In this document: piece by piece, positions 60 through 429 of the stretch
Layout: the number at the start of each line of letters is the position of its first letter
How positions within the stretch are numbered: position 1 is the stretch's first letter
Assembly (NCBI RefSeq): GCF_051903065.1
Contig: NZ_CP178438.1
DNA from: Escherichia coli
GTDB lineage: Bacteria; Pseudomonadota; Gammaproteobacteria; Enterobacterales; Enterobacteriaceae
Reading direction: 5' to 3' (one strand)
Length of the DNA: 64,000 bases
Program-made: the position numbers and the translations under genes
The notes under the pieces: generated by a model
What the model was told of the DNA's origin: nothing
Seen by the model: the letters and a program-made list of their open reading frames with translations, nothing else
Database searches by the model: none

Positions 60-78
60 GATAATGAGAATTATTATC
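60..78. promoter_or_regulatory. Fur-box-like site GATAATGAGAATTATTATC
   Basis: Matches about 16 of 19 positions of the Fur consensus GATAATGATAATCATTATC; lies in an AT-rich stretch upstream of the chuT operon. Confidence 0.45.
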
Positions 79-407
79 GATCAATTTTTTATGATCAAGT
101 TTTTTTTTAACCACCATTAACACAATAAACAGGGGGTTATGAAACCTATCCTGCGCCCTGTAAACCACCTTGTTTTTATGGTTATCCCCCCATGCCTCAT
201 CACTAAATTTTGTCGTTAACAGTGATAATTTTTTCTTCTCTTTGCTCTGCAAGCCTCGATATCTCTGGGTTCTCAGCTTTTTCCCGCGATGAAATTTAGT
301 CGGTAACAAGAACGTTAGCTGACGAAGCATCTTGATAAAAATCAAAAATAAATACGCTTGTAACGCCTTGCGTATTGAATCGACGGTTGTATTTCATATA
401 TAACTCA

Positions 408-429
408 AATGATAATCATGATCATTCTC
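408..429. promoter_or_regulatory. Fur-box-like site overlapping the putative chuT promoter
   Basis: AATGATAATCATGATCATTCTC resembles the Fur consensus; candidate -35 TTGAAT (375-380) and -10 TATATA just upstream; about 25 bp before the chuT ATG. Confidence 0.5.

Follow-up and report, generated by a model that had tools for sequence, protein, structure and literature searches.

The two Fur-box-like sites between chuA and chuT are, almost certainly, the separate operators of two back-to-back divergent promoters, PchuA and PchuT. The distal of the two had been placed ahead of the chuT operon by a first-pass annotation made from the sequence; that reading is wrong in direction. The Fur boxes of both genes, including Fur binding and start sites, are already published, and as textbook operators of a well-studied virulence-associated heme-uptake locus they add nothing new. 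The value of checking them again lies in the correction: the distal site has to be assigned to chuA, a divergent gene cut off by the window (by window we mean the whole 64-kb stretch of DNA analysed). The only potentially new element in the interval is a perfect FNR box at positions 332-345, between the two Fur boxes.

The chuA-chuT spacer and its Fur boxes

The intergenic region between chuA and chuT (shuA and shuT in S. dysenteriae) is 682 bp long in the NC_013941 annotation, and the start of the window falls within it. In both the NC_013941 and the O157 Sakai layouts chuA is on the minus strand, with its ATG 230 bp to the left of position 1; hence position 1 falls within the chuA leader, and the gene upstream is a divergent one. 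On the plus strand, chuT (453-1367, 304 codons, identified by its ORF, a family match and the annotation) encodes the periplasmic heme-binding protein, and positions 1-452 are the right-hand two thirds of the spacer. The order of the locus is chuS and chuA leftwards and chuT, chuW, chuX, chuY, chuU and chuV rightwards.

Many O55:H7 and O157:H7 chromosomes match the first 460 bp of the window at 100% identity; O157 Sakai differs there at one position, and the region as such is present in 2236 of 5426 complete E. coli genomes. The locus is the same as that described as shuA-shuT in S. dysenteriae and chuA-chuT in E. coli (Wyckoff 1998; PMC3660397; PMC5458455; PMC9002310; PMC7157518): gene order, Fur 19-mers, leader lengths (291 nt and 42 nt) and the shuA_thermo element are all shared, there is no substantive difference, and the window holds another allele. 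The supporting experiments were done in O157 Sakai, CFT073 and S. dysenteriae, not in this exact strain; the CFT073 allele is about 90% identical to the window, yet its two Fur 19-mers are identical to those analysed here.

The whole 64-kb window was searched with the 19-bp Fur consensus GATAATGATAATCATTATC, allowing at most 3 mismatches. We considered as a Fur operator, by sequence, either a near match to this consensus or an array of NATWAT hexamers and, by position, a site overlapping the core promoter or the start of an iron-regulated gene; both boxes are of this kind in sequence as well as in position. The distal box (60-78, GATAATGAGAATTATTATC) matches the consensus at 17 of 19 positions, with 2 mismatches, and the proximal box (411-429, GATAATCATGATCATTCTC) at 16 of 19, with 3 mismatches. 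Both lie where the first-pass annotation had put them, and they are the sole sites with 3 mismatches or fewer in the 64 kb. The distance of about 375 bp given there for the distal site is also right, being that from the end of the box (78) to the chuT ATG (453). An extra 19-mer at 405-423 (15/19, 4 mismatches) overlaps the proximal box, shifted by one hexamer (6 bp), an offset that resembles typical Fur arrays; the other sites of the window have at best 5 mismatches.

The surroundings of the distal site are AT-rich, as had been remarked (36-40% GC at positions 1-500, against 50-58% in the genes), and this local composition is what could favour a reading of the two matches as chance. Such a reading is nevertheless vanishingly improbable: the expectation is 0.03 per 64 kb (mean of 100 dinucleotide shuffles), 4 strand-hits occurred in none of the 100 shuffles, both boxes are invariant across species, and Fur binding has been shown directly (PMC5458455, PMC7157518).

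Both boxes are invariant in nine Escherichia alleles, E. albertii included, while the neighbouring sequence diverges. Among five E. coli alleles, down to 90% identity, there is no variable column at 52-99, which holds the distal box together with the -10 and -35 elements; the most variable parts are the middle of the chuA leader and positions 140-219, and positions 220-460 are well conserved. When E. albertii and two divergent Escherichia lineages are set beside the five E. coli alleles, what stays invariant is the distal box with its promoter, a block of 14-16 bp at 126-141, positions 315-347, the chuT -35 and -10 elements, and the proximal operator. The divergent chuA/chuT layout is absent outside Escherichia, where the co-directional receptor is only about 30% identical to ChuA, and the distal box is for this reason untraceable beyond the genus.

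The distal box and the chuA promoter

The distal box lies on the chuA promoter. The core promoter, on the minus strand (70-98), was obtained from a promoter scan and agrees with the mapped start: it consists of a -35 element TTGATC (98 to 93), a 17-bp spacer and a -10 element AATAAT (75 to 70). In O157 Sakai the primary 5′ end of chuA was placed by dRNA-seq at 4,391,862, with a 5′ UTR of 291 nt (Sy & Tree 2022, PMC9002310). This coordinate maps to window position 61, minus strand; positions 1-61 (minus strand) are the first 61 nt of the 291-nt leader, as given by the mapped start and the annotated context, and, with the start at 61, the distal box covers -17 to +2 of PchuA. The mapped start is 9 nt downstream of the -10 element and falls on a T, which is slightly unusual, and position 62 or 63 could be the true start instead. 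For S. dysenteriae, a shuA leader of 278-342 nt was obtained by RT-PCR, and a chuA leader of 293 nt was used in the same work (Kouse 2013, PMC3660397). The FourU thermometer of this leader (Rfam shuA_thermo, RF02597) is recognised just upstream of the chuA ATG with 60.1 bits (gathering threshold 58), at 4268-4299 (minus strand) of the O55:H7 CB9615 locus that we used for comparison (L001), corresponding to window positions -232 to -201 and hence off-window.

Binding data assign the box to the same gene. Fur ChIP-seq in CFT073 gave two separate peaks, one for chuA at 4088366 and one for chuT at 4088708, and the ratio of RNA in the fur mutant to that in the wild type was about 362 for chuA and about 294 for chuT (Banerjee 2020, PMC7157518 supplement). 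The motif instances under these two peaks are GATAATGAGAATTATTATC and GATAATCATGATCATTCTC, letter for letter the 19-mers of the window. The first-pass annotation had made its reading depend on Fur binding or an iron-responsive start near 60-80; Fur binding is seen there, as a peak on the exact distal 19-mer, which was assigned to chuA (PMC7157518).

The suggestion that the distal site marks a second promoter holds as far as the promoter is concerned, but this promoter belongs to chuA and is on the opposite strand (start at 61, minus strand; PMC9002310). A second, upstream Fur-regulated promoter of chuT itself, with a leader of about 370 nt, is very unlikely. The box is palindromic, and a weak plus-strand pair can be picked by eye (TTGTTA at 43-48 and GAGAAT at 66-71, 8 of 12 positions), below the threshold of the scan. 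However, the promoter scan gave no plus-strand site at the distal box, the start mapped there is on the minus strand, the authors of the ChIP-seq study assigned the peak to chuA (PMC7157518), and RT-PCR in S. dysenteriae under iron limitation detected no shuT transcript reaching upstream of the mapped start region (PMC5458455).

Equally remote is the possibility that the distal box governs a separate Fur-regulated gene within the spacer, for a small RNA or a small protein. There is room for it in the 350 bp between the two starts, where the invariant blocks 126-141 and 315-331 also lie, and short leader RNAs do exist, Term-seq having placed 3′ ends of the chuA mRNA at +129, +271 and +297 (PMC9002310), though these are products of the chuA transcript and off-window. 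We considered as an sRNA gene a unit with its own promoter and an intrinsic terminator, or a match to an Rfam family. Positions 1-600 contain no terminator-like site; within the intergenic region only shuA_thermo attains its Rfam gathering score, the two other listed matches being far below; and positions 140-219, the most variable part of the spacer, carry indels. The Fur-regulated small transcript proposed for this site thus finds no counterpart in the scans for terminators in 1-600 and for sRNA families at gathering score. As for a small protein, the 99-codon ORF noticed on the minus strand does exist (46-345), but it is not a gene: it is broken by frameshifts or stops in all four other alleles (4/4), has no NCBIfam match, and is without annotation in current RefSeq records.

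The remaining proposal linked the box to the far end of the upstream gene, as a terminator-proximal or 3′ regulatory region, and had in its favour only the place of the box at the left edge of the window. It is refuted by orientation, since chuA starts, and does not end, here: its 5′ end faces the box, transcription runs away from it, and there is no terminator-like structure, which leaves this proposal with practically no probability.

Some further features of this part of the spacer were noted. The imperfect 6-4-6 palindrome at 126-141 (ATAAACAGGGGGTTAT), invariant in all Escherichia alleles with E. albertii among them, precedes the chuA start by about 65-80 bp. Motifs resembling ArcA, Cra and IHF sites, seen by eye at about 101-145, were discarded, as they are not kept in E. 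albertii or in the divergent alleles. Dam sites (GATC) occur at window positions 79, 93, 420 and 461; the chuA promoter has two GATCAA repeats 14 bp apart, one of which forms the -35 element, and another GATC lies inside the proximal Fur box. Epigenetic switches in which Fur binding and Dam methylation overlap are known elsewhere.

The proximal box, the chuT promoter and the control of both promoters

The chuT core promoter (375-404, plus strand) has a -35 element TTGAAT (375-380), an 18-bp spacer and a -10 element TATAAC (399-404); the sequence agrees with the geometry published for shuT, in which the promoter starts at -36 from the transcription start (PMC5458455), and both elements are conserved across genera. 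By 5′-RACE the shuT start is 42 nt upstream of the ATG (Wei 2017, PMC5458455), corresponding to window position 411. The published shuT Fur site, of 19 nt at +1 to +19 and with three mismatches (PMC5458455), corresponds to 411-429. Together with the overlapping 19-mer at 405-423, it makes up a proximal operator at 405-429, from -6 to +19 of chuT, based on the sequence matches, the published shuT site and the ChIP-seq peak. The first-pass annotation had this box overlap a chuT promoter as the operator for iron repression: the operator role is established (PMC5458455), but the box lies just downstream of the -10 element and not over it. A plus-strand site given by the promoter scan with its -10 at 449-454 was rejected: it runs into the chuT ATG and is at odds with the start mapped at 411.

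In the published work, shuT reporters showed iron- and Fur-dependent expression, Fur bound the shuT 5′ UTR in EMSA, a truncation of 5 nt abolished iron control, and the shuT 5′ UTR alone conferred full Fur regulation on a heterologous promoter (PMC5458455). The 42-nt 5′ UTR (411-452, plus strand, from the 5′-RACE) also carries the published FourU-type thermometer hairpin, in which U425 and U426 pair with the Shine-Dalgarno region and for which mutations at +15 and +16 were tested (PMC5458455). Our prediction for the chuT leader has a hairpin pairing AUUCU with AGAGU of the Shine-Dalgarno region, the fold energy of which is no better than that of shuffled sequences (z = -0.12).

These data are relevant also to the possibility that the two operators cooperate, by Fur oligomerisation or by looping across the 350 bp, with each of them repressing both promoters. 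Fur is described as polymerising along AT-rich DNA and protecting up to about 100 bp (PMC5458455, discussion), and the whole spacer is AT-rich. Against this, the ChIP-seq peaks are two and separate, 342 bp apart (PMC7157518), the shuT 5′ UTR is by itself sufficient for full Fur regulation (PMC5458455), and between the distal and the proximal box there are no further Fur-like sites with 6 mismatches or fewer. We consider such cooperation unlikely.

With separate operators as the preferred reading, control of the locus would be as follows. Two sigma-70 promoters stand back to back, their starts 350 bp apart, and a Fur operator goes with each. In the presence of enough iron, Fe2+-Fur would occupy 60-78, covering the -10 element and the start of PchuA, and 405-429, covering the start and the early transcribed region of PchuT, and RNA polymerase would be blocked at both. 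Under iron limitation both promoters would fire: chuA would be made with its 291-nt leader and further controlled by the FourU thermometer, by Rho and by sRNAs, and chuT with its 42-nt leader bearing its own thermometer. Sequence and published data establish the sites, their orientation, the start sites and Fur binding; that the distal site acts by promoter occlusion is what we infer from its position, which is the classical one for such repression.

A parallel is offered by the Fur-controlled bidirectional promoter regions of the E. coli K-12 enterobactin genes, where divergent iron-acquisition operons are repressed, as in chuA/chuT, by Fur at the core promoters. The enterobactin promoters are close or overlapping and have common Fur sites, whereas chuA and chuT start 350 bp from each other and have an operator and a ChIP peak each. 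The regions in question, fepA-fes and fepD-ybdA/entS, are those of Christoffersen 2001, cited in PMC5458455.

A predicted FNR site in the chuT promoter and the history of the operon

The FNR box at 332-345 (TTGATAAAAATCAA) matches the consensus TTGAT-N4-ATCAA at 10 of 10 positions. There are two perfect FNR boxes in the 64 kb, against an expectation of 0.12, and the second (19756-19769) lies 114 bp upstream of the ATG of ccp/yhjA (19648, minus strand). In the passage of PMC10301912 that cites Partridge 2007, ccp/yhjA is given as activated by FNR and OxyR; as a known target of these regulators, it makes its box a positive control within the window.

Within E. coli, a 42-bp block around the chuT box is 100% identical in 2226 of the 2236 chu-positive genomes, 1231 of which are only 90-95% identical to the window over its first 460 bp. 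To look beyond Escherichia, loci were picked by means of the ChuT protein, independently of any regulatory motif. In these loci a gene for a TonB-dependent receptor (about 30% identical to ChuA) stands before chuT in the same direction, and homologues of chuW, chuX and chuY follow. An FNR box with at most one mismatch is present ahead of the receptor gene in 30 of the 31 non-Escherichia loci, and a Fur box follows it 70-80 bp downstream, counted from start to start; the genera with this pair are Citrobacter, Enterobacter, Raoultella, Kluyvera, Klebsiella, Pluralibacter, Intestinirhabdus, Providencia and Proteus. The gene upstream of the FNR-Fur module is cueR in Citrobacter, Enterobacter and Raoultella and differs in the others; because the upstream gene varies between genera, the box is to be assigned to the heme operon.

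When 13 promoters from 10 genera were aligned, the half-sites TTGA and ATCAAA proved invariant and the N4 spacer variable. The half-sites are the most conserved 5-mers of the promoter, above the Fur box and the -10 element (background pairwise column identity 0.45), and the FNR centre is 69.5-73.5 bp from the start of the Fur 19-mer in all 13 sequences. By this comparison, the FNR box appears to be kept more strictly than the Fur box across at least ten enterobacterial genera.

As to position, Wing, Williams and Busby are said to have found, in 1995, that class I FNR sites lie near -61.5, -71.5 or -82.5, on the activating face; the spacing of 69.5-73.5 bp seen in the 13 promoters fits the position of about -71.5. 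The centre of the chuT box is at -72.5 from the start at 411, a start mapped only in Shigella, and the box is accordingly predicted as a class I site. A class II promoter, with its start about 41.5 bp from the box, was also considered and rejected, since by eye there is no acceptable or conserved -10 element at 368-373 (plus strand) or at 304-309 (minus strand). The FNR site published for chuA (TTGTAATGTTTCAA, PMC5481319) is a different one: its sequence differs, it is absent from the intergenic region, and its APEC O1 coordinates fall inside the chuA coding sequence.

From its conservation and position, we give an even chance to the box at 332-345 being a third operator, apparently undescribed, at about -72 of PchuT and derived from the promoter of an ancestral receptor-chuTWXY operon. 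In the literature searched we found no report of FNR control of chuTWXY or of the site 332-345; a review of 2016 lists iron and temperature as the sole signals for Shu, and reviews up to 2025, within the same search, do not treat the choice between ChuS and ChuW/ChuY in heme degradation. The published shuT reporters began 62 nt upstream of the start and hence excluded the box (PMC5458455).

The predicted site suggests that oxygen may control the operon for anaerobic heme degradation by ChuW and ChuY. FnrS is known to repress the O2-dependent heme oxygenase ChuS. If FNR did control chuT, it would mirror, at the level of transcription, what FnrS does to ChuS, and with the two controls combined E. 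coli would change over between the aerobic and the anaerobic catabolism of heme. The conserved site thereby offers a simple testable hypothesis on O2-dependent (ChuS) versus O2-independent (ChuW/ChuY) heme degradation. For feoABC, joint control by Fur and FNR is described in the part of the review PMC4746246 that refers to Kammler 1993. This operon, which serves the uptake of ferrous iron, has Fur and FNR boxes by which iron supply is tied to anaerobiosis, the logic here proposed for chuTWXY; its FNR control is established experimentally, whereas that of chuT is predicted from a conserved perfect site at about -72.

Two other elements near the FNR box were noted. Block 315-331 (GTTAGCTGACGAAGCAT) abuts it and shows no variation in any of the Escherichia alleles, that of E. 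albertii included. A CRP-like box (TGTGA-N6-TCACA) lies about 41 bp upstream of the centre of the FNR box, at about -112, in most non-Escherichia genera; it is perfect in Enterobacter sp. 10-1 (positions 209-224 of locus L011) and occurs at the equivalent position in Kluyvera, Pluralibacter, Raoultella, Citrobacter, Providencia and Proteus, and its E. coli counterpart (window positions about 291-306) is degenerate.

The beginning of chuT itself points to the origin of this promoter. The first 25 codons or so of E. coli chuT (MPRIITRPFLFSPLTLCISAVASA, window positions 453 to about 530) are homologous, in DNA and in protein, to the signal peptide of the Citrobacter receptor (MLPRINQRPFILSALTLC...), and homology extends to the receptor gene of Kluyvera; the receptor 5′ ends compared were those of loci L013, L015 and L018, and such a receptor is kept in further genera as well. 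ChuT aligns with the ChuT proteins of other genera (MKKL...) only after about residue 31, and the native chuT ATG is replaced by CGA in E. coli. The annotated ChuT accordingly has two tandem signal-like segments, that of the ancestral receptor followed by ChuT's own without its ATG. Because the N-terminal codons derive from the receptor, what drives chuT in Escherichia, with the FNR box, the Fur operator and the leader, is the promoter of the ancestral receptor: the receptor gene was lost in frame, and its promoter and start codon stayed joined to chuT.

Three observations concern the state of the locus in particular strains. In the window, chuY (anaerobilin reductase, 3231-3853) has a 1-bp deletion at about 3559 with respect to O55:H7 CB9615, which splits the reading frame into ORFs 3231-3827 and 3554-3853; the exact sequence is found in only 3 of 2237 genomes, and chuY is probably a pseudogene in the source lineage. 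In the comparison of window positions 1-4960 with O55:H7 CB9615, 79 positions differ in the 4.5 kb that follow the first 460 bp, which suggests that the chu locus of the source strain may be mosaic or recombinant. In strain WP4-S17-ESBL-03 (NZ_AP022044.1), an IS26 abuts the intergenic region at about window position 41, just downstream of the chuA start; there, a truncated rlmJ and gorA stand in place of chuA-chuS, and the Fur box and the chuT operon are intact.
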